Shown: one piece after another, positions 794 to 57,838 of the stretch | How the letters are laid out: the number at the start of each line of letters is the position of its first letter | How positions within the stretch are numbered: position 1 is the first letter of the stretch | IMG/VR virus record: IMGVR_UViG_3300003873_000004 | Coordinates: 31,269-95,268 of that record | Direction: 5' to 3' (one strand) | DNA: 64,000 nucleotides | DNA from: a virus | Notes under the pieces: generated by a model | Database searches by the model: none | Seen by the model: only the letters and a program-made list of their open reading frames with translations | What the model was told of the DNA's origin: nothing | Position numbers and translations under genes: made by a program

Positions 794-1568
794 CAGAAAA
801 ACCGATCAATAGAAGTATAACTATTGTGTTCTATCGAAGTAGAATTGATGCGTGAATCAGCAATATCAAAATATTTTTCGTCTTGTTCAATTCCAATAAA
901 TTTTCGATTGAGTTTTTTTGCTGCGACTCCGGTCGAACCGCTGCCCATCGTAAAGTCTAGAACCGTTTCTTCTTCGTTTGTGTATGTTTTTATTAGATAT
1001 TTCAACAATTCTACTGGTTTCTGAGTAGGTGTAATTTACTACCACAATGAATAGAAAATTTTAGAATCGACAAGGGATAATATTCACCAGAAAGATTGCC
1101 TTTCTGTTTGAAATTCCCTTGTTTACCGTTGTTGCCTACAATAGAATTCGTATGTGTTCCGCCAGTTTTGGGACCTTTGTAAGATTTTCCTGTTCTCATT
1201 ATTGGTTTATACATTGGTTGTTTGTTGTAGAAAGTCAATATGTTTTCATATGACCCCATTGGCCGCTTTTTTGCGTATAGCGGGTTACTTCCTTTGCCTT
1301 TATCCCATATCCAATCATACTTGTAGTTTTTGATGTTACTCATTCTCAATGCGCTACTAAAAGGTTCGCAGCCAAACAAAACAATAGCTCCATTAGATTT
1401 GGTTATTCTATTTAATTGTTTCCACATTGGTTCAAAAGGAATTACATAATCCCATTTGCATGCTGTCGTTCCATACGGTGGATCGGTTAAAATAAAGTCG
1501 ATAGATTTATCAGGCAAATCTTTCATTAGTTCTAGGCAGTCGCCTTTTAATAGTTTGGTGTCTGTCAT
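793..1568 (-). CDS. DNA N6-adenine/N4-cytosine methyltransferase, frameshifted near 1028
   Basis: ORF 1011-1568 has TDPPY and ORF 793-1008 has LDFTMGSGSTG; adding one C (CAC CCT ACT CAG) restores the conserved HPTQKPVELL. Confidence 0.88.
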
Positions 1569-18090: not shown

Positions 18091-18545
18091 ATGATAGTTA
18101 TACAATTGACGATCTACTAGAAATCGAACTACCAAATGATGACTCTTTTCTACAAATCAAAGAGACTCTGACTCGTTGTGGTGTGGTAAATTTCAAGACA
18201 AAAACGCTATATCAGACTTGTCATATTCTTCACAAGCATGACAGATATTTCTTAGTTCACTTCAAAGAAATGTTTGCTCTGGATGGAAAATGTGCTAGGT
18301 CACATATTTCAGAAGAAGATTATGATCGCAGAAATCGAATTGCTCAGATGCTAGAAAAATGGGGATTGTGTTCACTAATCAAATCTGTGATTGTTTTTGA
18401 AGGAGAACATCGAACCAAACTGTTTGTGCTAAAATATCAGGAATCGAAAGAAATTGTTCCAGAAACAGGCAAACTGAAATGGACACTAGAAACAAAATAT
18501 GATTTCGTGTCGGATAAGGAGAAAGAAATTGCCATTGACAATTGA
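18087..18545 (+). CDS. regA: translational repressor RegA
   Basis: FL.IKETLTR.G...LYQTCHILHK..RY..VHFKE.F.LDG. Confidence 0.95.
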   Translation: MNDSYTIDDLLEIELPNDDSFLQIKETLTRCGVVNFKTKTLYQTCHILHKHDRYFLVHFKEMFALDGKCARSHISEEDYDRRNRIAQMLEKWGLCSLIKSVIVFEGEHRTKLFVLKYQESKEIVPETGKLKWTLETKYDFVSDKEKEIAIDN

Positions 18546-19044
18546 ACCTACATTAGGAATTTATCGGATATCCGAAAGCGTAGTGATGCCAAAATTTGAA
18601 ACACAAGGTGCCGCCTGCTTCGATTTGAGATATCAGCCAACAGATTGGAAAGTATTGGTTTATGATGCGCTAAACTACAAACAATATCTACAGCAACGTG
18701 AAAATGGAGAATTGTTCATCAATCCTAATGAACGGGTTCTTGTTCCAACTGGAATTATATTTGATATTCCAGAAGGATTTAGTGTTCGAATTCATATTCG
18801 AAGCTCTATGGCACTGAAACTTGGTCTGTCTCTGGCTAATAGTGAGGCCGTCATTGATTCGGATTACACACATGAATCATTTGTGATGCTTCAAAATAAT
18901 TCACAAGCGTTAGTACAGATCAACAAAGGTGACCGTATCGCACAAGCAGAATTGGTTCGAAATCAACCGGTCGAGTTAGTAAGCGTAGATCGACCACAGC
19001 AGAAAACTGACCGCACTGGCGGATTCGGAAGCACAGGAAAATGA
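18529..19044 (+). CDS. dut: trimeric dUTPase
   Basis: AACFDL, RSS, VIDSDY, RIAQ, RTGGFGSTG. Confidence 0.93.
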   Translation: MPLTIEPTLGIYRISESVVMPKFETQGAACFDLRYQPTDWKVLVYDALNYKQYLQQRENGELFINPNERVLVPTGIIFDIPEGFSVRIHIRSSMALKLGLSLANSEAVIDSDYTHESFVMLQNNSQALVQINKGDRIAQAELVRNQPVELVSVDRPQQKTDRTGGFGSTGK

Positions 19045-19298
19045 AAATCTATGTTGTTCGAGTGAGTGGAAAATATCTGAAAGGTGGTGGATGTCGATAT
19101 GAATTGGTAGACGACATTTCGAACGCTCGAACCTATTCGGCTAAAAGATATGCTAAAAATTCAATCAGACAAACTATGGAATATGAATTGGATGAAAACA
19201 AGATCAAACAGTTCGAGAACGCAGAAATATTGGAATGCGATATGGTCATTGGTGGATTTCAAGTTGACCGATTAATATTTCTGATTGACATGACCTAA
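19041..19298 (+). CDS. hypothetical protein
   Basis: ATGA overlap with dut. Confidence 0.6.
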   Translation: MKIYVVRVSGKYLKGGGCRYELVDDISNARTYSAKRYAKNSIRQTMEYELDENKIKQFENAEILECDMVIGGFQVDRLIFLIDMT

Positions 19299-19347
19299 AT
19301 ATTAGTGTAGAGTAGAGTAGATAAAGTTTTAATCAAAAGGAGAAAAA

Positions 19348-19890
19348 ATGTTTGAAATTTCAAAGAATTTTCAAATTTGTTATGCACATAGAGTATTTTC
19401 TCAGAATGTAAATGAGAAGTATTCTGGGTCTTCTGATTGTCCATGTCAAAAAATTCATGGGCATGGAGGAGTCATTACGGTAAGTTTATCTGCTCCTAGT
19501 TTAGACACTAGAGGATTTGTTATTGACTATAAGGAATTATCATTCGTTCGAGATTTTCTTGATAATAACATCGACCACAGGTTTATTATATCAGATTTGG
19601 ACCCAGGGTTTTTGAGATTGGTCGGCTATACCCCAGCACAGTTTAAAGCTATGTCATCTAAAATTTCGCTTCTTGATGAAGTAGGAATGGGATATCGAAC
19701 ATTTGATGATTCTGATGTTCATTTAGATTCATTTGTGATGATAGAAAACATTAATCCAACCAGTGAGAATTTATCGAAGTGGGTTTACGAAGGCATAGAA
19801 AAGGTCATAAATTTGTCCGAATTCGATTGCACTGTGAATTATGTCGATTGGTCAGAAACAGCAAAAACACACGCAAGGTACTCTAAATGA
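19348..19890 (+). CDS. queD: 6-carboxytetrahydropterin synthase
   Basis: AHR...CQKIHGH...IDY...DH...PTSENL...ET. Confidence 0.9.
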   Translation: MFEISKNFQICYAHRVFSQNVNEKYSGSSDCPCQKIHGHGGVITVSLSAPSLDTRGFVIDYKELSFVRDFLDNNIDHRFIISDLDPGFLRLVGYTPAQFKAMSSKISLLDEVGMGYRTFDDSDVHLDSFVMIENINPTSENLSKWVYEGIEKVINLSEFDCTVNYVDWSETAKTHARYSK

Positions 19891-20786
19891 GCAAAGAACA
19901 AGAGATTTTAGTGTTCGAAACATTCTATTCGTGTCAGGGGGAATCGCTACGAGTAGGAGTACCGTCGATTTTCATTAGAGTGTTTGGCTGTTCTGCCTCT
20001 TGTCCTGGATTTGGTCAGCCAAAAGGGAAACTAATTCCAATCGAAGAAATGCCGCACAATACTTTCGATGCCTCTAAGATCACTAGAGTTGATCAATTAC
20101 CTGTTTCGAATATTGGATGTGATTCGGCGGCAGCATGGTCGAAGAAATATCGACACTTGGCTAAGAAATATACAGTAGATTCACTGATAGAACATATCGA
20201 ATCACTTGTTCCTAAATATGCGTACGAACGTCCAGATATTGTTATTACTGGTGGGGAACCGCTTCTACCAAAATTTCAGAAGTTCTGGGTAGAGTTTCTG
20301 AAAAAAACTCCAAATTTTTCTGAGATTACGTTTGAAACCAACGGCACGCAAAGGCTATCTACAGATTTGTTCGAAGCTATTACCAACGGAAATATCAGAT
20401 TCACGTTTTCGGTTTCACCAAAGCTGGAAATTAGTGGAGAACCACAGAGCAAGATGTTGAAACCAGAAGCAGTCACATCATACAGGATGCTATATGCTTT
20501 TGATTGGTCTGAAACTGGACATAATGTTTATCTAAAATTCGTAATTCGAGATAACGATGATGTGGAAGAAGTTTATCATTTTATCAACGAATACCAGAAA
20601 GATTACAAGGAAGAATTGTCACTCAAAACATGTGAGAAGCCTACCGTTTATCTCATGCCAGAAGGCGCCACAATAGAAGGGCTAAAGTTGACAGAAACAC
20701 AGGTGGCCAATATCGCGCTCGAAAATGGTTTCCGATATAGCCCAAGACTTCACTGCTCTTTGTTTGGCAATTCATGGGGCACGTAG
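19887..20786 (+). CDS. queE: 7-carboxy-7-deazaguanine synthase (radical SAM)
   Basis: FYSCQGE...FIR..GC...C...GCDS, TGGEP, ETNG, SPK, RLH. Confidence 0.92.
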   Translation: MSKEQEILVFETFYSCQGESLRVGVPSIFIRVFGCSASCPGFGQPKGKLIPIEEMPHNTFDASKITRVDQLPVSNIGCDSAAAWSKKYRHLAKKYTVDSLIEHIESLVPKYAYERPDIVITGGEPLLPKFQKFWVEFLKKTPNFSEITFETNGTQRLSTDLFEAITNGNIRFTFSVSPKLEISGEPQSKMLKPEAVTSYRMLYAFDWSETGHNVYLKFVIRDNDDVEEVYHFINEYQKDYKEELSLKTCEKPTVYLMPEGATIEGLKLTETQVANIALENGFRYSPRLHCSLFGNSWGT

Positions 20787-20939
20787 AGACATTTTACTCT
20801 TGATTTGATACCAGTATATCAAAAAGAAATTCAAATCGTTTCTAGACACACTCTAGGGGCTAGAAACACATTAAATAAAGTTCTTGACAAGTACAGATTA
20901 AGAGTGTAGCATCAATAGATCAAATTCGAGAGGTAATCC

Positions 20940-21566
20940 ATGCTCAAAGCCAATTCAAATATAGTAAAATATATGGAAGAAAACGGAATCACAAAACAAG
21001 CAATTCGGGATAATGTTGAGAAAGCATATCAGGGGGTCTTAGATGCCCTGCTGATCGACACTGAACATGATCACAATACGCGGGAAACCGCGCATCGAGT
21101 AGCTAAAATGATGGTGAATGAAATATACAAGGGCAGATATGAAGAAATGCCGAAAGTAACTTCTTTTCCAAACGACAAACATTATGATGGGTTGTATTCA
21201 GTTGGCCCTATCGAAGTTCGTGCCACCTGCGCTCACCATTCGATGCCGATTGTTGGCAATGCTTGGGTTGCTGTACTTCCGGGCAAGAGAGTTATTGGAT
21301 TATCAAAGTTTTCTCGAATAATTGATTGGCTTTCTTCCCGCCCGACAATTCAAGAAGAACTTTGTGAACAGGTAGCAGACACACTGGTAGAAGTGACCGA
21401 AGCAAAGGGGATTTATGTTGTTATCAAAGCATCTCATGGATGCTGTACCCAACGTGGTATCAAAGCATCGAATTCAAATATGACAACCGCAGTGATTCGT
21501 GGAGAATTTCGGGGCAACTCTGATTTGAAGCGCGAAGCTCTAGAACTGTTTGACGAGTTCAAATAA
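20940..21566 (+). CDS. folE: GTP cyclohydrolase I
   Basis: CAHH, GLSK..R, QE, HGC..RG. Confidence 0.95.
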   Translation: MLKANSNIVKYMEENGITKQAIRDNVEKAYQGVLDALLIDTEHDHNTRETAHRVAKMMVNEIYKGRYEEMPKVTSFPNDKHYDGLYSVGPIEVRATCAHHSMPIVGNAWVAVLPGKRVIGLSKFSRIIDWLSSRPTIQEELCEQVADTLVEVTEAKGIYVVIKASHGCCTQRGIKASNSNMTTAVIRGEFRGNSDLKREALELFDEFK

Positions 21567-21969: not shown

Positions 21970-23018
21970 TGAGAAATTTATTTATCTTACCAATCGAACC
22001 AATCGAGAACCGTTACCCTGCAGACTGGTATCGATATGTTCCAAACCAGTTTCGAGATTATATTGCTGAAAATGGTCTAGACTTCGTGGTTCATCAGATC
22101 GATGGAATCTTTTCTGCTTCTAATTCGGGGAATACAAATTTTCTAAACTTTGTCGATTCTCATGGATATAAAACATCTCAGATGTTTGCTGTATCTGAGC
22201 TGATTCAGAAGGGCGAGGTTCACGATGGTGATGTGTTCCTTCTAACGGACGGCTGGAATCCTTGCGTCAACAATCTGAAAACGATGCTTGAAATGTCTAA
22301 TATCGACGCTCGAATTGTTGGTGTGTTTCATGCGGGCGGCTGGGACTCGGCAGATATTATTCCAAATACAGTCAAAAATAAAGATTGGTTGTATGAATCA
22401 GAACTTGGAATGTTCTCCGCATACGATGACATTATTGTGGCGACAAAGTTTCATGCCGATCTGATTATAGAATATAGTAACATTGAAGTTTACCCTATCA
22501 CCGTTTGCCCTTTCCCGATGGAATATATGAAGGACACATTGAAGAAATATGTCATCCCAGATTCAAAAAAACGAGATATTGTGGTGTTTCCTCATAGAAA
22601 TTCACCAGAGAAGCAGCCAGATTTGGCAGACGAAATCGGCAAGCGTTTGAAACTGCTAGGAATAACGTACATCAATTGCCGCGATTACAATTTCACTAAA
22701 GATGAATATTATCAACTACTGGCACAATCAAAGGTGTGTTTTTCTGTATCGTTACAAGAAACTCTTGGCATTGCACAATTTGAAGCCGCTCTGCTCGGAG
22801 CCATGCCATTAGTGCCGAATCGTTTATCCTACACAGAAATGTACCATGATGCGTTTAAGTATGTCAACGATAACGATATTGTTCAGCGAATAGTCGATAT
22901 GTTGGAATTTCCTAAGCACAAACAGGATGCTTATATCCATAATGTTGATTATGTTGGAAACAATTTTTTTGACGGCAACAATGGATTTTATCAAACGGTC
23001 TTGGGAGAACAACGATAA
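21966..23018 (+). CDS. GT-B glycosyltransferase
   Basis: FPHR..PEKQP and SLQETLGIAQFEA (ExxGxxxxEA). Confidence 0.82.
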   Translation: MMRNLFILPIEPIENRYPADWYRYVPNQFRDYIAENGLDFVVHQIDGIFSASNSGNTNFLNFVDSHGYKTSQMFAVSELIQKGEVHDGDVFLLTDGWNPCVNNLKTMLEMSNIDARIVGVFHAGGWDSADIIPNTVKNKDWLYESELGMFSAYDDIIVATKFHADLIIEYSNIEVYPITVCPFPMEYMKDTLKKYVIPDSKKRDIVVFPHRNSPEKQPDLADEIGKRLKLLGITYINCRDYNFTKDEYYQLLAQSKVCFSVSLQETLGIAQFEAALLGAMPLVPNRLSYTEMYHDAFKYVNDNDIVQRIVDMLEFPKHKQDAYIHNVDYVGNNFFDGNNGFYQTVLGEQR

Positions 23019-24191
23019 ATGAAAAGAAAATCAATATATTTTGCCTCTCTGAGTTGTGCAACTTCGAGTTATCTAAAGAAAACAGATGAAGAATTTCGAG
23101 CGATGGATCCTGCGCTATGGGAAGTTTCCCCGAGATTTGTCAACAAGAATGATACGTTTTATCACAAAGACGCTCTATTTTCTGCCTCACTTCACCAGAA
23201 ACTTTATCCAGACTTGCGTAAACAACTTCATTTAGATGACGATGTTAATATTTTTGTCGATAGTGGTGGATACTCTTTGGTTGCTGGTACGATTACAGAG
23301 AAGACTTGGAATAACGAAACTGCGCTAGCTTATTCAGAACGCAATGGTAATATCTTTCCTATCTTAGATAGACCAGTGAGTAACGCGGTAACACCAGCAG
23401 ATATCCAAGCATGTCTCGACAAGACCATGATCGCTGCGAAATATTATGAAGAACATAGAACGAAAGATTCTTGTGACATTCTCAATGTGTTGTCTGCTCG
23501 GACTTCACATGACATGGAACATTGGTATAATTCAATGAAGGAATTTTCTTTCGAAGGATGGGCACATGGTGGTCATAGTGGTAATCTGAAAGTTGCCCTC
23601 AAAGGTATATTGTTTCTTCTAGCGAAAGGGGAATACGACAAAGATCGAATTAAATTTCATCATGTTTTTGGAATATCTGGAATGGCCGCGATTGTTTACT
23701 TTGCTTTGGTTCAGCAATTGCTCAATAAAATGGGCGTAGATATCCAGCTAACCTTCGACAGTTCTTATTTCCAGAGACAGATGGGATTTGGGGCAGTGTT
23801 TATCAACCCAAAATGGACAGGCATGGGAATCTTACCATATTCTAATAAGAACGATTATTCGCATATGGATGACGTGCCAATGGTCTGTGACTGTGCCATC
23901 TGTAAGACTGTGCCATCTGTCAAGAAGTTCCTAGAGTCATCAATGACATTTTACATGAAAGGTTTGACTCATAATTTGTTGATGATGGATCGAATCAAAC
24001 ATCAAGCAGAATCAATTTTCGATACAGAAATATTAGAACAGCAGAAAACTGTATTCGGAGCAGAAATATACAATAATACACAACTTCTTCGTAAAGCGTT
24101 CGCAAACCCAAAAGCTGGCATGGAATATATTGATCGAATGTCGTTGAAAGACTTGGGCAACTCCCCTGTCAGTTTAGAAAATTTGTTTTAG
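23019..24191 (+). CDS. TGT-family transglycosylase, DpdA-like
   Basis: FVDSGGY, ILD.P, GWA.GG, H.FG, TFDSS, CDCAIC...H zinc site. Confidence 0.82.
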   Translation: MKRKSIYFASLSCATSSYLKKTDEEFRAMDPALWEVSPRFVNKNDTFYHKDALFSASLHQKLYPDLRKQLHLDDDVNIFVDSGGYSLVAGTITEKTWNNETALAYSERNGNIFPILDRPVSNAVTPADIQACLDKTMIAAKYYEEHRTKDSCDILNVLSARTSHDMEHWYNSMKEFSFEGWAHGGHSGNLKVALKGILFLLAKGEYDKDRIKFHHVFGISGMAAIVYFALVQQLLNKMGVDIQLTFDSSYFQRQMGFGAVFINPKWTGMGILPYSNKNDYSHMDDVPMVCDCAICKTVPSVKKFLESSMTFYMKGLTHNLLMMDRIKHQAESIFDTEILEQQKTVFGAEIYNNTQLLRKAFANPKAGMEYIDRMSLKDLGNSPVSLENLF

Positions 24192-24229
24192 TGCTTGACA
24201 AGACCAGCAAAAGGGTTTAGACTTGGCTT

Positions 24230-24412
24230 ATGAAGAAAAAGATGACTGAAAAAGTTTTGCGTGATTTGTTTCAAGAGCAAATTGACAGGATAGATTCAAA
24301 GATGGAGGATCTTCAAGATATTCTCTACGATTTAGACAGCATAAAAGATGGTCTTAGAGATACACTTGGTAGAATAATTTATGAAAATTTTGAGGAGAAT
24401 GAAAATGTATAG
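24230..24412 (+). CDS. small coiled-coil protein
   Basis: ATG 6 nt after TAGACT -10. Confidence 0.6.
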   Translation: MKKKMTEKVLRDLFQEQIDRIDSKMEDLQDILYDLDSIKDGLRDTLGRIIYENFEENENV

Positions 24413-24740
24413 TTGTCCAGTAGAAGATTATACTCCAGATGCTTGGAAAATTATGAAAATATCAGGCGACAACGGGCCCGCATATAAAGTTTTGTCTGGA
24501 TGGAATAGCGGTTATTTGACCACTGATGGCTGGCGTCTTAATAGTGGTATAGAAAAGGTCGAAGAATCCGGCGAGTTTTATTATATCACTGGCAGAAGTG
24601 GGTCTATCATAAAGGCTAACAAGAAAGCGGAAGGCTTTATTTCGGCTAATCGAAGTATTTTTGATAAGCTAAAAGAGCAGGAAACAGAATCTCTGAAAAT
24701 TGAAACAATTGATATGAAAGATTATTTGAATCAATCCTAA
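24405..24740 (+). CDS. conserved phage hypothetical protein
   Basis: YKVLSGW..GY...WRLNSGI pattern. Confidence 0.7.
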   Translation: MYSCPVEDYTPDAWKIMKISGDNGPAYKVLSGWNSGYLTTDGWRLNSGIEKVEESGEFYYITGRSGSIIKANKKAEGFISANRSIFDKLKEQETESLKIETIDMKDYLNQS

Positions 24741-24836
24741 GCCACTTTACTCTTGATTTGATAGCAGTATATCAAAAAGAAATTCAAATCGTTTCTAGAC
24801 ACTCTCTAGGGGCTAGAATATCAGTAAAGAAAGTTC

Positions 24837-25832
24837 TTGACAAGTACAGGACGGGAGTGTATCGTATTGACAAAATTACAACCATTTAGTAGCGCGATTG
24901 CGGAGATACAATTTGGCAGTCATCTCTACAAATTAAACACAGAAAACTCTGATCGAGATTATGCTGGAATTTATCTTCCTACGATCGATGATATTTTACT
25001 CGAAAATGTAACAACGGTTATCGACATAAGTGACAATAAGAAAACAAAGAACGGCCCAGAAGATATTGATCGAAAGTTTTATTCGCTTCGAAAGTTTATG
25101 TCACTGGCAGCAAAAGGCGATACCAATGTGATGGACATGCTTCATTGCTCGGATTCGGATATTCTAACCACATCTGATATTTTTGACACACTTCGAGCAA
25201 ATCGTTCAAAATGTTATACGAAAAACTGCTCGTCGATGGTTGGATATGTGAAAGCACAAGCCAATAAGTATGGCGTAAAGGGTTCCAGATTATCAGCAGT
25301 AAACAAAGCCTTGAAAATGTGCGAGGCAATACGCGACAAATCACAGACCCTTTCTGACTACTGGGATTTTATTCCTGTATCAGAATTTTCTAAGTTGATC
25401 AGCACAGATACAGAAAACTCGGGCGTTCAAAGATTCTATGAAGTATGTGGTAGAAAATATCAGGATTGTTTGACGTTTGAAGAGTTTGAAGAAAATATGA
25501 CTGCTTTGAAATCGAAATATGGAAGTCGGGCGGAGAAAGCAGAATCTAATGATGGTGTAGATTTCAAAGCGATTTCACATGCTCTACGCGTAGGATATCA
25601 GACACAGGACATATTAACCAAAGGAACATATGGTTTCCCTCTTGATCAAACAGAATATATCAAAAAAGTAAAAGCAGGTGAAGTAAACATTGGCGATGTT
25701 CGACAAGTCTTAGAAGATTTGGTGAAAAATATCAAAGTACAGATTGAGGAATCAGATTTGCCAGAAGAACCAGACACAAAGTTCTGGGACGATTTGTATT
25801 TGAAAATTTGTAGAGATCATTACTCAATATGA
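24837..25832 (+). CDS. Pol-beta-type nucleotidyltransferase (NrdC.11-like); start uncertain
   Basis: FGSHLY..NTENSDRD; K..SHALR. Confidence 0.85.
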   Translation: MTSTGRECIVLTKLQPFSSAIAEIQFGSHLYKLNTENSDRDYAGIYLPTIDDILLENVTTVIDISDNKKTKNGPEDIDRKFYSLRKFMSLAAKGDTNVMDMLHCSDSDILTTSDIFDTLRANRSKCYTKNCSSMVGYVKAQANKYGVKGSRLSAVNKALKMCEAIRDKSQTLSDYWDFIPVSEFSKLISTDTENSGVQRFYEVCGRKYQDCLTFEEFEENMTALKSKYGSRAEKAESNDGVDFKAISHALRVGYQTQDILTKGTYGFPLDQTEYIKKVKAGEVNIGDVRQVLEDLVKNIKVQIEESDLPEEPDTKFWDDLYLKICRDHYSI

Positions 25833-26095
25833 ACCAATCTAAATTAGAATCTTTCATCGAGTCAATGATGAACACGCTGTCTGGATTTGTAATATCTTGG
25901 ATGGCATGGGCGTTCGTTGTGGCTCCTCTATTTGGCTTACCTGTTGATATGACACAATCGTTCTGGATTACTGTTGTTTTCACTTTCATTTCTCTTGGTC
26001 GAAATTATATGGTTCGTCGAATATTTGTTGGTGGATTTCATCAGAAAGCAATCGAGTTGGCTAAAAGATTAAAGCCGATATTGGCGAGGTACTAA
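25829..26095 (+). CDS. small membrane protein
   Basis: QSKLES..ES..N..G, two hydrophobic helices, R.Y..RR.F. Confidence 0.75.
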   Translation: MNQSKLESFIESMMNTLSGFVISWMAWAFVVAPLFGLPVDMTQSFWITVVFTFISLGRNYMVRRIFVGGFHQKAIELAKRLKPILARY

Positions 26096-32886: not shown

Positions 32887-33084
32887 TCACTCGAGTTGAT
32901 ATGAAAGTAGATGGAAAGGTTCATTCTCTCCAGAAGCCCAATCGGCATCATAACTATTATATTCTAAGAACAAAAGGCTCAAGGATTTCTAGACGAAGAA
33001 TGGAATATTCTCACTCTGAAGATTTGTGGTGAAATATCTCCAAGCTAAATAGTTGTAACAATTTTGTTTAGCATGGAGTTCTAA

Positions 33085-35708: not shown

Positions 35709-35830
35709 TAGCAGTAATAATTATAGCCTTCTTATGCGGGTGCCATCACCCCACGCCGTTTCAAACTGGTGTAGAGAAACCATCTCCCCACGGTTGTATT
35801 GAAGGCCGAAGTAGAGGAGTAGATTGCTAA
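35696..35830 (+). CDS. small lipoprotein
   Basis: MARLIAVIIIAFLCGC lipobox, 44 aa (manual translation). Confidence 0.6.
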   Translation: MARLIAVIIIAFLCGCHHPTPFQTGVEKPSPHGCIEGRSRGVDC

Positions 35831-36207
35831 TGACGTTATGGAATAGACTAAACGAAATACAGGCAGATGTGCTGGGTAGATTCACTTATGTTTGTGACTG
35901 TGACAATCCACTAGAATTTAATCGAGTTGAATACTGGCAGGACGTCGAGCATCTAAATGGTGCTATACATGGTGACTGTGAGGATTTTGCTCTGGCCTGT
36001 CGTAAACTGTGTAGAGAAAAGAAAATTAGTACTCGTCTAGTCTATTGTTATACAGAGAAAAATGCCGGCCACTTAGTGTTGGAATCTGATGGTTGGATAT
36101 TAGATTGTCGGCAGAAAGAACCTGTAGCGAGGGACGATCTTCCATACAAGTGGGTTAGAATCTCTGGATATGAAACCGGCGACCCTTGGCACGAAATAAA
36201 GGAGTAA
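35830..36207 (+). CDS. transglutaminase-like cysteine peptidase (BTLCP-like)
   Basis: EYW...GDCEDFA...GHLVL...WILD. Confidence 0.8.
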   Translation: MTLWNRLNEIQADVLGRFTYVCDCDNPLEFNRVEYWQDVEHLNGAIHGDCEDFALACRKLCREKKISTRLVYCYTEKNAGHLVLESDGWILDCRQKEPVARDDLPYKWVRISGYETGDPWHEIKE

Positions 36208-36212
36208 TTCAA

Positions 36213-36593
36213 ATGAGCAGTTTCACAACACCACTGATAGTCAAGATTCACGTCAAAAATCCACAAGAACGGGAAATATATGTTCCGTTCACCTATGTTA
36301 CAAACGACGGAAGAACAATTACAGCACCAAAGGGGTTCTTCACTAATTTCGCTTCTACTCCAAAGTTTTTGTGGGAATTTTTGCCGCCGTTAGATCATTA
36401 TGGTAAAGCAGCAGTTATTCATGATTATCTATATCGAACTCCTGGACTCGGCTATACTAAAGCGGAGTCCGATCTAATTCTAAAAGAAGCATGCGAAAAT
36501 CTTGGTGTGAAGAAATGGAAGATCGACGCGCTATATTACGCGGTGAAATTGTTTGGATTTCACGCATGGAACAAACAGAGGAAATTCAAATGA
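36213..36593 (+). CDS. DUF1353-like protein
   Basis: PKGF.T.FAS.P...AAVIHDYLY...AV..FG. Confidence 0.8.
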   Translation: MSSFTTPLIVKIHVKNPQEREIYVPFTYVTNDGRTITAPKGFFTNFASTPKFLWEFLPPLDHYGKAAVIHDYLYRTPGLGYTKAESDLILKEACENLGVKKWKIDALYYAVKLFGFHAWNKQRKFK

Positions 36594-37006
36594 CTAAAAT
36601 AGAAAAACTGTTAGAAAAACATGAAGGCCGTCGTAATATGGCATACAAAGACAGCAAAGGCATCTGGACAATTGGTATTGGTCATAATCTCGAAGCGAAT
36701 TCTATTCCCGATGAAGCGGTCAGCATTATTTTTGCCGCAGACAAAGCTAATGTAGATTCGGATATTTCAAATAGCTTTCCTTGGTATTCTTCGTTAGACG
36801 AAGTTCGTCAAGGCGTAGTTGTAGATGTTGTTTTCAACATGGGGTTGCCTCGTTTCAAGGGATTTAAGAATACTATTCGATATATCAAGCAAGGAGATTA
36901 TGATAAAGCGGCAGACGAATTATTAGACAGTGATGCTGCACGCGATCTACCAAAAAGATATAATGAATTATCCGAAATGATGCGTACTGGAGAATGGCAA
37001 TTTTAG
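36590..37006 (+). CDS. T4-type lysozyme (GH24)
   Basis: HEG...YKDSKGIWTIGIGH...FNMG...AADELLDS. Confidence 0.9.
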   Translation: MTKIEKLLEKHEGRRNMAYKDSKGIWTIGIGHNLEANSIPDEAVSIIFAADKANVDSDISNSFPWYSSLDEVRQGVVVDVVFNMGLPRFKGFKNTIRYIKQGDYDKAADELLDSDAARDLPKRYNELSEMMRTGEWQF

Positions 37007-37419
37007 TGCTTGACAAACGCGTAGAATAAGTTTAGTATTATCGTATTGAGAGAAGTTAAGGAGATTATATCATGAATTTCAAAGAGAAGATGGCTGAACA
37101 GACCAAACAAATCAAAGAGTTTTGGGCCAAGCATACAGAGTTCACTATTGACGAAGCAGCAGCCATTTGGATTATTGAAAATGCCGAAACCTTTTCAAAG
37201 GAGAACGCATGATCATTCCAATCAAAAATGAACTACTAATCGCAGCAACAAAGAAAGAATCAAAAATCAACGAATATGTTGTGGGCGGATTTGCTCTGAT
37301 GTTTGCGTCAGCTATGATTGTTCTTGCTTTCATTGGATGGATTAGCTAAACATTTGCTTGACAAGAGCATAAAATAAGTTTAGTATTATCGTATTGAGAG
37401 AAGTTAAGGAGAAATAATT

Positions 37420-38240: not shown

Positions 38241-38598
38241 GGGGGTGACTTAGATTCGACCGAGATCAAGATGTTTTAGTAAGCACACAGGAATAGATGG
38301 CGCCTTAATGCCAACAAAGCTCTTAACTGCAGCGAACGCCTCAAATATTTTGCGGGCAGCCGCTTAATCATTTCTGATAGTAATGCCAGTCGTGCTATCT
38401 CATGAAATGTCAAATTTAGACTGGCTAAGTTGATGACGTTTTTTCAAGTCATCGAACGAAAAACATAGAAATGATACGCCATGATCGATTTTGATATATT
38501 TCAGATTGTGGTCAAAGGTTATAAAATATGTCTAAGTGTGTAGAAAGCTTTAATTGACGATGCTCGATACAGGGGTGCAAATCCCCTCACCTTCACCA
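38241..38598 (+). ncRNA. ssrA: tmRNA, tag (A)AANASNILRAAA at 38329-38367
   Basis: 5' GGGGGTGAC..GATTCGAC; 3' AGGGGTGCAAATCCCCTCACCTTCACCA; TAACT before GCA resume codon; tag ends AAA-stop. Confidence 0.9.
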
Positions 38599-38638: not shown

Positions 38639-39187
38639 ATGAAGTCGTTTAATGAATCGTCGTTGTCCAGAGTATGGCAGCATTTCAAAAACGATGATCG
38701 AACTGTCGTTGTTCTAACTTCGTCAAGAGAAGGCATGCTTGACACTGATGTGATCAAAGGAAACAAATATATCGCCGCCAAATTACAAAATGCTGGATTT
38801 GGGTACTTCTTTGTTGAAGGTCATTTCATCGAAAATAAAGGAGATTCAGACGAAGCGAAGGCGAAAGAAGAATCCATTTTTGCCATTGCCGAAAGGGAGA
38901 AATCAAACAAGTTGATTTCTCTAGCGCATGCTTTAGCAAATAGATACAACCAAGACGCTATCATTGTGAAGGAAGGCAAAGGAGACAGTTCCATTTCATA
39001 CTTTTTGAACAAAGATAACACAAAAACGGCACTGAAAGGTAAATTGAGTCCAGGCAAGATTGGTGACTATTATACACGGCTTCATAACAATAAGAAAGCC
39101 AACACTTTTGTTTTTGAATCTGTAAAGCATACAAAAAGTTGGATAGGAAAGGCCGAAGAGTTCACACGAATGAGCAGCGTCACCTAG
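38639..39187 (+). CDS. SAM lyase (T3 SAMase)-like protein with capsid-targeting-like N-terminus
   Basis: VLTSSR...N...L...EGHFIE...EES...LANRYNQDAII. Confidence 0.6.
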   Translation: MKSFNESSLSRVWQHFKNDDRTVVVLTSSREGMLDTDVIKGNKYIAAKLQNAGFGYFFVEGHFIENKGDSDEAKAKEESIFAIAEREKSNKLISLAHALANRYNQDAIIVKEGKGDSSISYFLNKDNTKTALKGKLSPGKIGDYYTRLHNNKKANTFVFESVKHTKSWIGKAEEFTRMSSVT

Positions 39188-39456
39188 AAGTTTGTGAAAG
39201 CGTAAGAATGTAAACTTGTGGTTTACAAAATTGCGAATTGCCAGCGAATAACTACGCGTAGATGAAGAAACGTAAACTAACACATATTTTGAACAGTAAC
39301 AAACAAAATGTTAGAGTGCGAAACAAAGTGCTTGACAAGATCAAAGAAATAGTTTAGACTTATTGTATTGAAAGGGTGAAAATTGTTCAGGTGAACAGGC
39401 GTGCCCGCTGATGGTGGTTCGATTCCTCAAGTACACTCATTTCAGACGAAGGAAGT

Positions 39457-39772
39457 AGTGACGGTAATCGCAAAGTGTGCGGACTGAACGGAACTTCGGT
39501 AGTGAATGTGTCACAAAAGCAAGGGCTGCTCGATGGCCAAATCGAGCGAATAAAGCACGGTAAAATCCCGTATTGGTCGCAGTTTTGTTGATTCTCCCGA
39601 TACGCTTGGACAACAGTTTATCCCATAGTTGTTCAGCGAACCAGATCGACTGCTTAGGTGCAGTGCAAAAGTCAATCTCAGTCCGCACATCGAGAGGTTG
39701 ATTGGAGTTGAGATGTGCCCTATCCCGTCAGGTTATGGGAATGATGGTTCGATGTGGGGTCAAACTGTCATT
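39457..39772 (+). ncRNA. unidentified structured RNA (~315 nt)
   Basis: Closing helix 39457-65/39764-72; 12-bp helix 39476-87/39678-89; several inner hairpins; promoter at 39332. Confidence 0.65.
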
Positions 39773-39850
39773 AGCGTCTGTAGTTTAATTAGAGGACAAA
39801 ACACTTGCCATGAGGTTAGAGATTTGGGTTCGAATCCCGGCATGACGCTG
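39773..39850 (+). tRNA. degenerate tRNA-like element
   Basis: AGCGTC/GACGCT acceptor, TAGTTTAA D-arm start, GGTTCGAATCC; irregular anticodon arm. Confidence 0.5.
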
Positions 39851-40047
39851 ATTATTAAATGAAAACAACGATTATTAGGAGAATAACTAATGTCACAAAA
39901 AGAATACATCGCATGGTTAGAACAGGAATTGTCTAGGTATATTGTTGGTTCTTCTGATACGATGGAAGAAATCGTAGAGAAAATAGATCATGTTCTAGAG
40001 ACGCGAAACGACTTCTTAGAGAACGAAAACTTTGAAGAGGAGTGGTA

Positions 40048-41133
40048 ATGCCAGCATATTGGATAGATAAGAAAGGAAAATTTACAGAATCGAGAGATAA
40101 TCATATTATTTCTATCATTGCGAACCCTAAAGTGTTTGGTTTCACTCTAGCGCAATTGAAAGAAACTTATGTGAAATACGATGAACATTTTGGGGCTGAA
40201 GGCAAAGCGCGACGAGAAATCATCGATGAAGCTATCAGTCGAGGATGGATTAGAGTTCGATTATATCCTAGAACTCACTGGTCTATCACTATCGCTAAAC
40301 TTGACAAGCGTGTTCGCAATGTAATTACTGAATTTTGTCAGAATTTGATTGCTGGTAAATATCCCGCTGTTCGTAATCTCGACCAATATCAACCCGTGAA
40401 ATTTACTGCTGTGAAATCCAGACAGACTAATCAAGATTATACTGTCAAAGAAATAGCTGATGGCGAGCTATTGGACGGGAAGAAGCTGGTTGAAACCCTG
40501 TTTCTTATTGATGATTATTCGGATTTTCTTGAAGAAAGTTCGTTGTCACGTGTATGGAATCAGACCAGAAAGCATTCTGTTGGGACTATTACAGCATACA
40601 GATATGCTCGTGACTGTGGTACTGGTGAAGTTTATACGAAGAACGAGAATAAATCCCGAAATGTTGTGCTTAGAGCAAAACTTCTCAAACTCGGATATTC
40701 TATTACCAAAATCAAAGGAACATATATCGAAAATTATGGTTCATCAAAGGAAATCGAAGTGTCAGAGGAGTCCTTCTTGGTGGTTGATTTGGACGACGAC
40801 GGCAAGCTACGCACTAATCTAATCAAACTCGGAACAGAGTTCGACCAAGATTCTATCACATTTCAAGAAAATTCAAACACGGGATATTTTCTAATTTCGA
40901 CAAATAAATGTGAAAGTGGATATCCGGGTCATGGAAAGATCGGAGTTATCAAGAAGCTTGGCAAAACGATGTTCGGTAAGAAAGGTGAGTTTTTCTCAAA
41001 AGTGAACGGACGGCCATTCGTGTTTGAAGAAGTTGGCGAACATTTGATCAATTTTTCAGATTTAGAAATTTCCGGAAAGCGTGGTGTTGTAGAATGGTCT
41101 AAGAAGAGTGGACAATCTGCGTGTTCGATTTAG
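40048..41133 (+). CDS. two-domain protein with C-terminal SAM lyase-like domain
   Basis: FLEESSLSRVW...ITAYR...NKSRN..L...GTYIE...EESFLV...LGTEFDQDSI; paralogue of 38639. Confidence 0.65.
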   Translation: MPAYWIDKKGKFTESRDNHIISIIANPKVFGFTLAQLKETYVKYDEHFGAEGKARREIIDEAISRGWIRVRLYPRTHWSITIAKLDKRVRNVITEFCQNLIAGKYPAVRNLDQYQPVKFTAVKSRQTNQDYTVKEIADGELLDGKKLVETLFLIDDYSDFLEESSLSRVWNQTRKHSVGTITAYRYARDCGTGEVYTKNENKSRNVVLRAKLLKLGYSITKIKGTYIENYGSSKEIEVSEESFLVVDLDDDGKLRTNLIKLGTEFDQDSITFQENSNTGYFLISTNKCESGYPGHGKIGVIKKLGKTMFGKKGEFFSKVNGRPFVFEEVGEHLINFSDLEISGKRGVVEWSKKSGQSACSI

Positions 41134-42078: not shown

Positions 42079-42744
42079 ATGCTGACTTTGAATGAATTTC
42101 TGGTAGAACGAGAATACAAAGAATTTTGTGCACTGGACTTCGATGCTTTAGATGAAGGAGTGCTAGATAGACTATCCGGCGCAATGAAAAAGAAAATCGA
42201 ATTTGTCAAAAGGGTTGCTGATAAGACAGGAAACAAATTGTCTGATGTCGTGGCAACTTTCAAAAATAGAAAAGTGTTTTCTTTCTTCACCAAGATTAAA
42301 TGGTCGTTCGACAAGTTGATTCAACTTCTCAAAACTGGTTACAAAGCATACGGCACACTGATCAAAGTTGTATCTGAATATTTGGCAAAAAATCCCGTAG
42401 TGAAATGGACAGACAAGAAGCTGATCGAATTAGACGATTTCTTGAAAACTCATCCTAAGACGCGAAGAATGGCAGGATTTGTGGTGGCTGGATTGCTGGC
42501 GTATGTATGGTTTCATGTAGCATTTTCTGGTGATGTGTCCACAGACTTCGATATGTCACAACTTATAGCTGCTATGTCTGGAAGTTTTTCATTATCCAAC
42601 ATATTCTCTGGAGCGAATGGAATCACCATGATCGGCCTGCTTTTGGCTGGCACTTTAACTGGCGGGTTTCCTTGGCCGTCTAGAGCCAATACACAATTCA
42701 TTACAGCAATTATCGGCACACTAATTCACAAATTTCGACATTAG
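42079..42744 (+). CDS. late membrane-segment protein with capsid-targeting-like N-terminus
   Basis: MLTLNEFLVE; CTAAATA-N5-ATG; hydrophobic C-terminus. Confidence 0.7.
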   Translation: MLTLNEFLVEREYKEFCALDFDALDEGVLDRLSGAMKKKIEFVKRVADKTGNKLSDVVATFKNRKVFSFFTKIKWSFDKLIQLLKTGYKAYGTLIKVVSEYLAKNPVVKWTDKKLIELDDFLKTHPKTRRMAGFVVAGLLAYVWFHVAFSGDVSTDFDMSQLIAAMSGSFSLSNIFSGANGITMIGLLLAGTLTGGFPWPSRANTQFITAIIGTLIHKFRH

Positions 42745-47796: not shown

Positions 47797-48603
47797 ATGA
47801 TTTCCTTCTCAGAATATTTAAATGAAGCAATTTTTGACATAAATTCTGCTGTTGATCATATTTTCGACACGTACTATGCTGATTATTTCAAGAAATTGTC
47901 GAAATTGCATGGCGGGGATACAATACCACGAAGGCCATCATCAAGAACTTTCACATCTAAAAGATTGGCAAAATTGTCTAACAACAAAGCAATTACTGTG
48001 GCTAATCTTATTAAGCCCGTAACTATTACGATAGAAGGTCAGAACAATTCATATAATCCAGTATCTTCACAAATTTTGATCAAGATGTCTCAGTTTGCCG
48101 ATTATGTTCAAAGATTTTCAAATGTGTTGGAACAGGCAGACAAAGACAGAAGCGCAGAAGATGTTTTTTCCAATATGATGATGAATCCGAAAGAAGAGCG
48201 TTCGTTTCGAGAAGATTTTCGTGGCGAGAAGATCAAGAATTCTATTGCTCATGAATTGTCCCATTGGCTGAATGACACAAAAAATAACAATAATATAATG
48301 ACAAAATTGATGAACGCGAAGGGTAAAAACGTATCTATAGAGGTTTTACAGGGATTAGATAATGTAGCACTGACTGATTTTGAACGTGATGCGCAAATTC
48401 ATCAGATAGCACAAATGAAACGTAAAATCTCGCAAGCAGTATGGGATAGTTTATCATTTGAAGAAATGCTATCCAGAGATAATTCTTTGTATCGAGCAAT
48501 TTGGATTAGACTATCAAAAAAAGATCAAAAGACATGGAAGAAATTGATACTAAAACGTATGGCACGTGAAAAACTACTAGGCAAAAATATGAGGTTCAAA
48601 TAA
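47797..48603 (+). CDS. late protein with HExxH zincin motif and capsid-targeting-like N-terminus
   Basis: MISFSEYLNEA; AHELSH...E.DA; CTAAATA-N5-ATG. Confidence 0.7.
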   Translation: MISFSEYLNEAIFDINSAVDHIFDTYYADYFKKLSKLHGGDTIPRRPSSRTFTSKRLAKLSNNKAITVANLIKPVTITIEGQNNSYNPVSSQILIKMSQFADYVQRFSNVLEQADKDRSAEDVFSNMMMNPKEERSFREDFRGEKIKNSIAHELSHWLNDTKNNNNIMTKLMNAKGKNVSIEVLQGLDNVALTDFERDAQIHQIAQMKRKISQAVWDSLSFEEMLSRDNSLYRAIWIRLSKKDQKTWKKLILKRMAREKLLGKNMRFK

Positions 48604-54230: not shown

Positions 54231-54557
54231 GTGGCATCTTATAGTACAATCAAAAAGATAATGAATGAAAAGAAATCAGACTATCAGGTTTACTTTTCTT
54301 CGTATTCTGCAGCAATCAAAGAAATTGAAAAATATGGCGAAAAATATGGATATACTTTCGATGATACCTCTGATCCTACTATGATTGGTGATCAGATGGC
54401 AACCAAAGTAGGCATGGGGCCAAAGAGACCCAATCATGGTAGGACTAACAAATTTCATTTCGATCTCTACAAAAACAACAAATTGCAGAAGAAAAAATTA
54501 CATGCTCAGGTGTATGGTGACGAAGGTCGTTTTGAATTGAACCTGTACATTTCGTAA
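54231..54557 (+). CDS. hypothetical late protein
   Basis: SD; YFSSYSAA...LH.QVY....FELN.Y. Confidence 0.7.
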   Translation: MASYSTIKKIMNEKKSDYQVYFSSYSAAIKEIEKYGEKYGYTFDDTSDPTMIGDQMATKVGMGPKRPNHGRTNKFHFDLYKNNKLQKKKLHAQVYGDEGRFELNLYIS

Positions 54558-55000
54558 TGCTGAATTTCAAAGATTTTCTGATAGAGCGTTCTAATTTAGC
54601 CGCAGAGAAATTGGCAGCGTTGAAAAATAAAAAGGTTGCTCAGACACCAATCACGGCAGCACAATTAGATAAGTTAGAAAAACATCTCGACGCACTGTTC
54701 AAACATCTTAAGATCGACATTGAATTTTCGAAACATTTTTTTGATAGACTTCACGACAAGCGGAATGGTAAAACCATTTCTATTGACGAACTTAATGCTC
54801 TGTTCCAGAAAGTACATAAAAAGTTTGGTGTTGTTCTAACACAAGAGCCAGATAAGTTCGAAGCTGTGTTCAAATCAATTAAATCAAAGATAAATATACC
54901 TTTTGTAATCAAACTAAATAAAGGTATGATTGAAATAATTTCGAAAACTATAATGAGAAAGTCAAACTTTGGCACAAGCAACAAGGAATTGAAAGTATGA
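54557..55000 (+). CDS. capsid-targeting-like protein, possible RNase-fold domain
   Basis: MLNFKDFLIE; FSKHFFDR..D.RN...I...EL; KTIMRK. Confidence 0.6.
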   Translation: MLNFKDFLIERSNLAAEKLAALKNKKVAQTPITAAQLDKLEKHLDALFKHLKIDIEFSKHFFDRLHDKRNGKTISIDELNALFQKVHKKFGVVLTQEPDKFEAVFKSIKSKINIPFVIKLNKGMIEIISKTIMRKSNFGTSNKELKV

Positions 55001-57538: not shown

Positions 57539-57838
57539 TTGAAAACATATAACGAATTTATTACAGAAGCGGCATCAAAGGCAGGCAAACGTATTCTTGC
57601 TCGCACACTAAAGCAGAAATTGTCTGATGCTTGGACAATTGGCGGTGGTGGCACTCTAGTTGCTATGGGCGATGCTGACGAAGTTTCTATCGAAGATGCG
57701 GTAAAAGTGTTGTCTAAAATCTCTGGAGTTGGTGAGTTCAAAGACGCTAAACTTGCTGGCGGTAAGAAATCCTCATTTGATGGCGGTATTATTTCCGTAA
57801 TTGAAACTGGTGGCAATGTTCGCGTGGAATATGCTTAA
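57539..57838 (+). CDS. internal head protein-like
   Basis: MKTYNEFITE, close to T4 IPII/IPIII MKTYQEFIAE; TTG start with AGGAG. Confidence 0.7.
   Translation: MKTYNEFITEAASKAGKRILARTLKQKLSDAWTIGGGGTLVAMGDADEVSIEDAVKVLSKISGVGEFKDAKLAGGKKSSFDGGIISVIETGGNVRVEYA

Follow-up and report, generated by a model that had tools for sequence, protein, structure and literature searches.

The analysed stretch (hereafter the window) comprises 64,000 nucleotides (nt) of the IMG/VR virus record IMGVR_UViG_3300003873_000004, positions 31,269 to 95,268, and forms the right-hand 64 kb of a linear contig of 95,268 bp, estimated to represent about half of the genome of a T4-like phage. No near relative of this contig was retrieved by a nucleotide search of 50,697 phage records. 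The present analysis deals with two open reading frames (ORFs) of the window, ORF A and ORF B, whose products resemble S-adenosylmethionine (SAM) lyases, enzymes that split SAM into methylthioadenosine and homoserine lactone, and with the junction at which the lyase domain begins in both of them. Their features are listed below; positions refer to the window unless the contig is named.

38639 to 39187, plus strand: ORF A, 182 residues, a stand-alone SAM-lyase-like protein of the "A-type" subfamily
38639 to 38656, plus strand: leader MKSFNE of ORF A, a truncated capsid-targeting-like propeptide whose last residue is the invariant Glu
38657 to 38677, plus strand: SSLSRVW, with which helix 1 opens in the predicted mature product of ORF A (helix at residues 6-17 of the model)
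38819 to 38953, plus strand: active-site residues G61, F63, E65, E77 and Q105 of ORF A, placed by alignment with T3 gp0.3, with roles according to PMC7877911
40048 to 41133, plus strand: ORF B, 361 residues from the ATG at 40048 (363 from the GTG at 40042), with an N-terminal domain, a linker and a "B-type" SAM-lyase domain
40048 to 40509, plus strand: N-terminal domain of ORF B, of an uncharacterised family
40510 to 40536, plus strand: internal tag-like string DDYSDFLEE, ending at Glu165, with a putative prohead-protease site (L-E-E, then S)
40537 to 41130, plus strand: SAM-lyase domain of ORF B, residues 166-363, with G226, Y228, E230, E242 and Q269

A strong AGGAG Shine-Dalgarno sequence was found directly 5' of the ORF A start codon. 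For ORF B, the ATG at 40048 is the likelier start rather than the listed GTG at 40042, because it lies 6 nt after a GAGGAG, overlaps the stop codon of a preceding 52-codon ORF and agrees with database entry P0001; residue numbers of ORF B follow the 363-residue listing from the GTG.

Two SAM-lyase-like proteins

A preliminary description of this stretch had reported the string ESSLSRVW as common to the ORF at 38639 and to the C-terminal half of the one at 40048, and this was borne out by both searches that were made. In BLASTP, ORF A and ORF B shared 29% identity over 177 residues (E 3e-12), the alignment starting exactly at the SSLSRVW junction, and in a six-frame scan of the 95-kb contig the pattern E[ST]SL[SA]R occurred only at these two junctions. 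Each protein had hundreds of database homologues, and nearly all of the 182 listed carried the SAM-lyase Pfam family PF23780 (cut-off 28 bits). ORF B matched this family with 44 bits and ORF A with 25.1 bits, slightly below the cut-off, the family being present in 58 of 62 ORF A homologues. A tblastn search of the same 50,697 phage records with ORF A gave no match, and nothing was retrieved from NCBIfam; in a sequence search of solved structures the family profile reached the T3 SAM lyase only at E 0.69, and ORF B alone retrieved nothing.

The comparison of AlphaFold models with the T3 enzyme and Svi3-3, which had been proposed as a check, was carried out with the structure search VIA, in which predicted (not solved) query structures were compared exhaustively with 48,161 solved chains. 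The T3 SAM lyase (7ock_L) ranked first for both proteins, at Z 9.6 and a root-mean-square deviation of 4.1 over 128 aligned residues for the AlphaFold2 model of ORF A (mean predicted local distance difference test score, pLDDT, 81), and at Z 9.3 and 4.4 over 137 residues (model residues 168-327) for that of ORF B (pLDDT 85). Svi3-3 (6zm9_A) scored Z 6.1 with ORF A and 7.2 with ORF B, and unrelated ferredoxin-like folds lay about 3 Z units below the T3 SAM lyase for both models. The top seven Foldseek matches of the ORF A model and the top three of the ORF B model were all SAM lyases. Known SAM lyases are homotrimers with active sites between subunits; a three-copy prediction of ORF B residues 166-363 scored 0.25 against a mark of 0.42 in one run, and no use was made of it either way.

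The T3 motif pattern that the earlier reading had traced through both ORFs was reproduced in a MAFFT alignment with T3 gp0.3, the sequence of which was taken from the T3 genome record. T3 residues R19, G55, E59, E67 and Q94 were invariant, corresponding to R187, G226, E230, E242 and Q269 in ORF B and to R30, G61, E65, E77 and Q105 in ORF A. Three residues are strictly conserved in proven SAM lyases, namely Gly56, Glu69 and Gln104 in Svi3-3 numbering (Guo et al. 2021, PMC7877911); these hold the methionine moiety of SAM, while Tyr58 packs on the sulfonium (PMC7877911). The counterparts of this Gly/Tyr/Glu/Gln set were G226, Y228, E242 and Q269 in ORF B and G61, F63, E77 and Q105 in ORF A, with the Gly, Glu and Gln invariant in 120 B-type and 64 A-type relatives. 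The Phe found in one copy in place of the Tyr of the other was thereby confirmed (Phe63 in ORF A, Tyr228 in ORF B). As 44 of the 64 A-type relatives have Trp in the aromatic column, 17 have Phe and 2 have Tyr, against Tyr in the B-type, Phe63 is, judged from the alignment, a trait of its subfamily that retains the aromatic ring and not a defect.

Profile, fold and conserved active-site residues thus agree with the description of the two proteins as paralogues of the T3 enzyme, and it is highly probable that ORF A and ORF B are enzymes of the SAM-lyase family, with an activity predicted from homology, modelled fold and active-site residues. They belong to two old sister subfamilies carried by large phages with a prohead protease of the T4 type (S77). 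With T3 gp0.3 (PDB 7OCK, 8BB1) and Svi3-3 (PDB 6ZM9) they share the fold, PF23780 and the active-site pattern Gly/aromatic/Glu/Gln-Asp/Glu, and presumably also the reaction and its use against SAM-dependent defences, at a sequence identity of only about 17-23%.

Two other accounts of these proteins were considered. The SAM-lyase fold might serve another role here, either cleaving SAM-derived signals such as SAM-AMP, of type III CRISPR (clustered regularly interspaced short palindromic repeats) systems, or mainly binding and blocking the host SAM synthetase. The SAM-AMP lyase 9gab was indeed among the weaker structural matches of both models (Z 4.4; Foldseek E 0.05), the T3 SAM lyase binds SAM synthetase in the solved complexes 7ock and 8bb1, and the Tyr is replaced by Trp or Phe in the subfamily of ORF A; yet the T3 SAM lyase and Svi3-3 clearly outscored the SAM-AMP lyase, and the residues that hold the methionine moiety in Svi3-3 are invariant here, which makes such a role improbable. 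The second account concerns ORF A, which departed from the consensus at 7 of 44 conserved columns of its own subfamily, among them that of the near-invariant Phe in the T-A-F-R strand, as against only 2 of 68 columns in ORF B. Taken with the PF23780 score under the cut-off and the truncated leader, these changes could mark a decaying or re-purposed duplicate, only the ORF B lyase being functional. This appears rather unlikely given the intact frame, the strong ribosome-binding site, the retention of all strictly invariant residues and a model at pLDDT 81; moreover, the unusual T-S-S-R version of the strand recurs in an orthologue of 87% identity, so that it was inherited and does not reflect fresh decay.

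The glutamate junction and its leaders

ORF A reads MKSFNE followed by SSLSRVW, and ORF B reads DDYSDFLEE, ending at residue 165, followed by the same seven residues. Across the family, Glu stood immediately before SSLSR (position P1) at all 176 junctions, and P3 was Leu, Ile or Val at 165 of them (94%). Downstream, the S, L, S, R, V and W positions of SSLSRVW were at least 90% conserved. The additional N-terminal helix SSLSR[VI]W is the hallmark of both subfamilies; T3 gp0.3 has neither this helix nor the [LIV]-x-E junction, and an 11-column gap opens there in the alignment. In both models the junction Glu closes a low-confidence segment directly before the first helix, namely residues 1-6 of ORF A and the linker of ORF B (residues 149-165, in which DDYSDFLEE sits), both with pLDDT below 50.

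T4-type prohead proteases cut after Glu (PMC5694885), and the [LIV]-x-E preceding SSLSR corresponds, as a sequence pattern, to the cleavage motif of T4 gp21. A Glu that never varies, in a stretch that is otherwise variable and disordered, would be expected if a protease required it, and is less easily explained as a helix cap. The same junction recurred inside tandem or fused relatives from metagenomes (P0003, P0009, P0292 and P0273), which contain two lyase domains, or a lyase, a domain like the N-terminal one of ORF B and a further lyase in a row; each of their lyase domains begins at [LIV]-x-E followed by S(S/G)LSR, as expected of polyproteins that are to be cut apart.

The leaders preceding the Glu ranged from 3 to about 44 residues in length. 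A large class of 9-10 residues followed the pattern M-K-x-F/L-x-E/K-Y/F-L/I-x-E, and longer leaders often opened with an M-K-x-F/L-type string and closed with a second [LIV]-N-E. In the T4 record, the internal proteins IPII and IPIII start with MKTYQEFIAE and IPI with MKTFKEFT...ITE. Within the T4 capsid-targeting sequence, the residues at positions 4 and 7 bring the protein into the head and those at positions 8 and 10 govern its processing, an Asp at position 10 preventing the cut (PMC9026906, a review of Black's work). This four-position pattern was present at 27% of family junctions versus 1-3% of other Glu positions.

The two copies of the window represent this pattern unevenly. DDYSDFLEE of ORF B fits positions 4, 7, 8 and 10 of the T4 sequence, and ORF B homologues have YSEFLHE, TFDEFLNE and similar strings in its place. 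MKSFNE of ORF A matches tag positions 1-6, or else the leader of its orthologue minus four residues, the closest homologue (P0122, 87% identity) having a complete 10-residue leader.

Head-maturation machinery and virion evidence

The contig encodes, outside the window, a T4-type prohead protease with a scaffold-like and a capsid protein, and further ORFs with tag-like leaders were found both beside them and within it.

Contig 22178 to 22417, outside the window: 79-residue ORF with leader MISFSEYITE, just 5' of the protease gene
Contig 22422 to 23042, outside the window: S77 (T4 gp21-type) prohead protease, PF03420 at 129 bits
Contig 23747 to 24664, outside the window: scaffold-like protein of 305 residues, near the protease gene, with 25 [LIV]-x-E sites
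Contig 24725 to 26008, outside the window: capsid protein of 427 residues, with 4 [LIV]-x-E sites in its first 41 residues
Window 42079 to 42744: ORF with leader MLTLNEFLVE
Window 47797 to 48603: ORF with leader MISFSEYLNE
Window 54557 to 55000: ORF with leader MLNFKDFLIE
Window 57539 to 57838: TTG-started ORF, KTYNEFITE followed by AASKAGK

The scaffold-like protein contained 8.2 [LIV]-x-E sites per 100 residues against approximately 1.5 in neighbouring proteins, a 5-fold enrichment; taken with the sites of the capsid protein, it clearly bears the mark of proteolytic head maturation of the T4 type. The ORF at 57539 is, by its predicted N-terminus, an evident candidate for an analogue of T4 IPII/IPIII, and the tag-leader ORFs together suggest a sizeable set of head cargo.

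The named carriers of the lyase family were all large myoviruses: the Campylobacter phages CP220, CPt10 and IBB_35, Lak megaphages, Alishewanella phage Slickus01, Paraglaciecola GD virus 1, Microcystis phage Mel-JY01 and cluster C cyanophages. An S77 protease was encoded by all five named phages tested, and by both complete IMG/VR records among 22 contigs with the family, the other 20 being fragments and therefore uninformative.

Direct evidence on virions came from a relative. In cyanophage S-CREM2, a "SAM hydrolase" (ORF6) was identified by mass spectrometry in CsCl-purified virions in 2023, with 19 peptides and 26% coverage, and its authors proposed that the protein enters the host and shields the DNA from restriction (PMC10665884). 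This protein, gp6, starts with MKDFDSFLEE and reads, further on, ...SLEE followed by SSLSRL; it aligned with the ORF B lyase at E 6e-10, from LEESSLSR onwards, and matched the profile of the ORF A family with 97.5% probability. Because gp6 was found in virions, is homologous and has the same junction, one member of the junction-bearing family is physically in virions. Like the proteins studied here, it belongs to a T4-like phage and combines a T4-like leader with L-E-E before SSLSR; it differs from them in its complete tag-like leader at the N-terminus and in a long, basic extension at the C-terminus, whereas the leader of ORF A is truncated and ORF B carries a foreign domain at its N-terminus. 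As far as it was read, the S-CREM2 paper (PMC10665884) does not discuss the tag or the protease site, and in the library of papers searched no description of tag-directed packaging of a SAM lyase was found. The virion association of a SAM hydrolase is thus already known from one cyanophage, and such a protein is no novelty in itself; the novel elements are the pair of old paralogues, the joining of one of them to a widespread N-terminal domain precisely at the putative cut site, and the junction statistics across the whole family.

Packaged cargo weighed against a cytoplasmic enzyme

The family-wide junction, the T4-like leaders, the S77 protease and the presence of S-CREM2 gp6 in virions make it the best reading, with a probability of roughly 55%, that ORF A and ORF B are loaded into the phage head, cut at the Glu and injected; the enzymatic activity, the Glu-Ser cleavage, the packaging and the anti-defence role are all inferred parts of it. 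For the junction-bearing lyase family as a rule, processing at the Glu as head cargo is probable. Along the route of the T4 internal proteins, both lyases would be made from early promoters and recruited into the core of the assembling prohead, where the prohead protease would cut after Glu, removing the 6-residue leader from ORF A and separating the 160-residue N-terminal domain of ORF B from its lyase. Retained in the head and ejected with the DNA, the lyases would deplete SAM ahead of all phage gene expression and thereby weaken SAM-dependent defences such as type I and type III restriction and bacteriophage exclusion (BREX).

These proteins resemble T4 IPI, IPII, IPIII and Alt in the short leader with hydrophobic residues at positions 4 and 7, Leu or Ile at 8 and Glu at 10, in the predicted S77 cut after Glu, in early promoters, in a location near lysozyme and RNA genes, and in a presumed role as anti-defence cargo comparable to that of IPI*. 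They differ in that the T4 internal proteins are small and basic with unrelated folds, none of them being a SAM lyase.

The main rival, clearly less likely, is that ORF A and ORF B are ordinary cytoplasmic early SAM lyases like T3 gp0.3. Under this account [LIV]-x-E-SSLSRVW would simply be the helix with which the fold begins, possibly with a part in the active site or the trimer, and the short leaders would be filler at the N-terminus, or remnants of an ancestral tag, defunct in these copies. The transcription signals around the two genes are relevant to it.

37358 to 37386, plus strand: sigma-70-type early promoter TTGACA-17-TAGTAT, heading a unit that ends with a transfer-messenger RNA (tmRNA) gene and ORF A
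39332 to 39360, plus strand: sigma-70-type early promoter TTGACA-17-TAGACT, 5' of a non-coding stretch, the 52-codon ORF and ORF B
39890 to 40048, plus strand: acidic 52-codon ORF, whose stop codon overlaps the ATG of ORF B (TAATG)

Both genes therefore lie behind sigma-70-type early promoters, TTGACA-17-TAGACT being a repeated early-promoter class of this genome to which the promoter at 37358 also belongs, and no late-type GCTAAATA motif was found near either of them. Late promoters of this phage consist of GCTAAATA, which in most cases stands 11-12 nt ahead of the ATG start of a head or tail gene, with 30 copies as CTAAATA in the whole contig (e.g., at window positions 33045, 42067, 44070 and 47785); two of the tag-leader ORFs start 12 nt 3' of such a motif. 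Since this spacing provides no space for a ribosome-binding site, late mRNAs may be nearly leaderless. The T4 late promoter TATAAATA was rejected as the late signal of this phage, its 5 copies in the contig being below chance expectation.

An early promoter would suit a cytoplasmic enzyme, but the T4 internal-protein genes are likewise early-promoter genes: the regions upstream of ipI, ipII and ipIII contain promoters of the early type and lack TATAAATA, of which two copies precede the control gene e. The missing late promoter was therefore dropped as an argument against packaging and, because early expression fits both the T3 lyase and the T4 ip genes, promoter class does not discriminate between the cytoplasmic and the packaged reading.

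ORF A and ORF B also lie near a lysozyme gene and RNA genes, as the T4 internal-protein genes do. In the interval 35824-37006 of the window (plus strand), the genes for a transglutaminase-like cysteine peptidase of the BTLCP type (PF06035), a DUF1353 protein and a T4-type lysozyme (PF00959) are consecutive; because the last two ORFs, as listed, share about 100 nt, a later Met is probably the start of the lysozyme. Directly 5' of ORF A, a tmRNA gene was found at 38241-38598 (plus strand; Rfam RF00023, 81.3 bits against a gathering threshold of 47, E 2e-31); the match is full-length and ends in CCA, and ARAGORN reported no tmRNA. After the early promoter at 39332, about 500 nt (39361-39889, plus strand) contain no credible ORF and include the T-loop-like strings GGTTCGATTCC and GGTTCGAATCC and a sub-threshold tRNA match at 39775-39848 (22.3 bits against 29), and may represent degenerate tRNAs or another structured RNA. 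The 52-codon ORF and ORF B are likely to be translationally coupled. The idea that this small ORF encodes a dedicated partner was abandoned, as it was not conserved beside SAM lyases in 87 related loci.

Several observations weigh against the reading of the two proteins as packaged cargo, and a number of them are also what a cytoplasmic enzyme would lead one to expect. Many A-type relatives have leaders of 4-7 residues, too short for a T4-like tag. ORF A lacks a complete N-terminal tag, MKSFNE having position 4 but not positions 7 and 8; its Phe at P3 is unique among 64 relatives, and it is the off-consensus copy of its subfamily. The N-terminus of ORF B (MPAYW...) has no tag, the tag-like string being internal only. 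To our knowledge, targeting by an internal tag or by a 6-residue leader has never been demonstrated. Conservation runs well beyond the supposed cut site, through SSLSRVW, so that [LIV]-x-E-SSLSRVW as a whole might form a single helix of structural or functional importance. The shared boundary alone is weak evidence for cleavage, because the domain starts at the same place whether it is fused or free. The homologue in Campylobacter phage IBB_35 (gene 5-9) was not among the 38 virion proteins identified by low-sensitivity gel-band mass spectrometry, a study in which the neighbouring products 5-10, 5-12 and 5-13 were detected and several expected structural proteins were missed. Finally, a lyase that is made early and is active might already work in the producing cell, to the detriment of the SAM-using enzymes of the phage.

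On the other side, the cytoplasmic account must accommodate a Glu that is 100% invariant and a P3 that is hydrophobic in 94% of junctions within a segment disordered in the models, T4-tag-like leaders that are 10-28 times enriched at the junction, the occurrence of family members in genomes with an S77 protease (among those tested), and the physical presence of S-CREM2 gp6 in virions. A free active lyase would, in addition, starve the phage's own QueE-like enzyme and methyltransferase. The proposal of protease-released, virion-delivered lyases made in the preliminary description consequently holds at the level of the family, where the Glu and P3 residues, the leaders, the S77 protease and S-CREM2 agree with it, while both copies in this window are atypical. 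As both lack a complete tag at the N-terminus, ORF A and ORF B are not filed here as proven T4-type cargo, and may still work like one.

The phage's own need for SAM was also taken into account. A cluster at 18499-21566 of the window (plus strand) comprises genes for a dUTPase/dCTP-deaminase-like protein, a QueD-like PTPS, a QueE-like radical-SAM protein (24 bits, below the cut-off) and GTP cyclohydrolase I (FolE), the radical-SAM gene standing between those for the QueD-like protein and FolE, and corresponds to the gene set for 7-deazaguanine DNA modification. Of the QueE and two methyltransferases attributed to the genome beforehand, the QueE-like gene and at least one N6/N4 DNA methyltransferase were recovered, the second methyltransferase being a weak match. 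At 859-1568 (minus strand), an N6/N4 DNA-methyltransferase match of 83 bits reads through four stop codons in its C-terminal half, and this gene may be split, interrupted or broken. No gene for the SAM synthetase MetK was found in the half-complete contig. The SAM requirement of the phage favours sequestering or restraining the lyase.

The N-terminal domain of ORF B could be connected with such restraint. Residues 1-150 form a separate, confident domain in the model, joined to the lyase by a disordered linker. Pfam and PHROG searches with this domain gave no match, and a protein atlas search gave only low-score matches (approximately 0.85); naming its fold was given up, the structural matches being weak (Stay-Green, Z 6.1; gelsolin-like, Z 5). 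Its family comprises 1,111 clusters at E<=1e-3, mainly free-standing proteins of 140-190 residues, and recurs in fusion with PF23780 domains, which it may precede, follow or separate, at times in duplicate. Among 87 related viral loci, all from IMG/VR, the domain was fused to the lyase in 8 and encoded by a separate gene within about 3.5 kb in 5, and this recurrent fusion and proximity argues for a functional link between the domain and SAM lyases. The [LIV]-x-E strings that precede internal N-terminal domains of fusion proteins were discarded as evidence, being too frequent by chance.

A speculative extension of the packaged-cargo reading, which we regard as a long shot, is that ORF B is a zymogen-like cargo polyprotein in which the N-terminal domain acts as a covalent safety catch or as a head-docking module. 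The domain would keep the lyase harmless in the producing cell, sparing the QueE-like enzyme and the methyltransferase, until the prohead protease cuts L-E-E/S inside the capsid and arms the lyase for injection. Restraint of this sort would make sense because the phage has its own SAM users and no MetK was found.

If the packaged-cargo reading is correct, its consequence would lie in timing. T3 is a small podovirus without a prohead protease, and its SAM lyase, the first early gene expressed, must be transcribed and translated first; a capsid-borne enzyme would be at work as soon as the DNA enters, the stage at which the outcome is settled by restriction and BREX. The family-wide association of a SAM-lyase domain with a T4 cut motif and a loading leader suggests a common strategy of large T4-like phages, represented in water, gut and soil metagenomes, and offers an explanation for the virion-associated "SAM hydrolase" of one cyanophage. 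The fusion of ORF B exactly at the putative cut site makes the idea of a protease-armed cargo polyprotein directly testable, and the genome sharpens the question of how a phage that uses SAM for the modification of its own DNA tolerates its own SAM destroyer.

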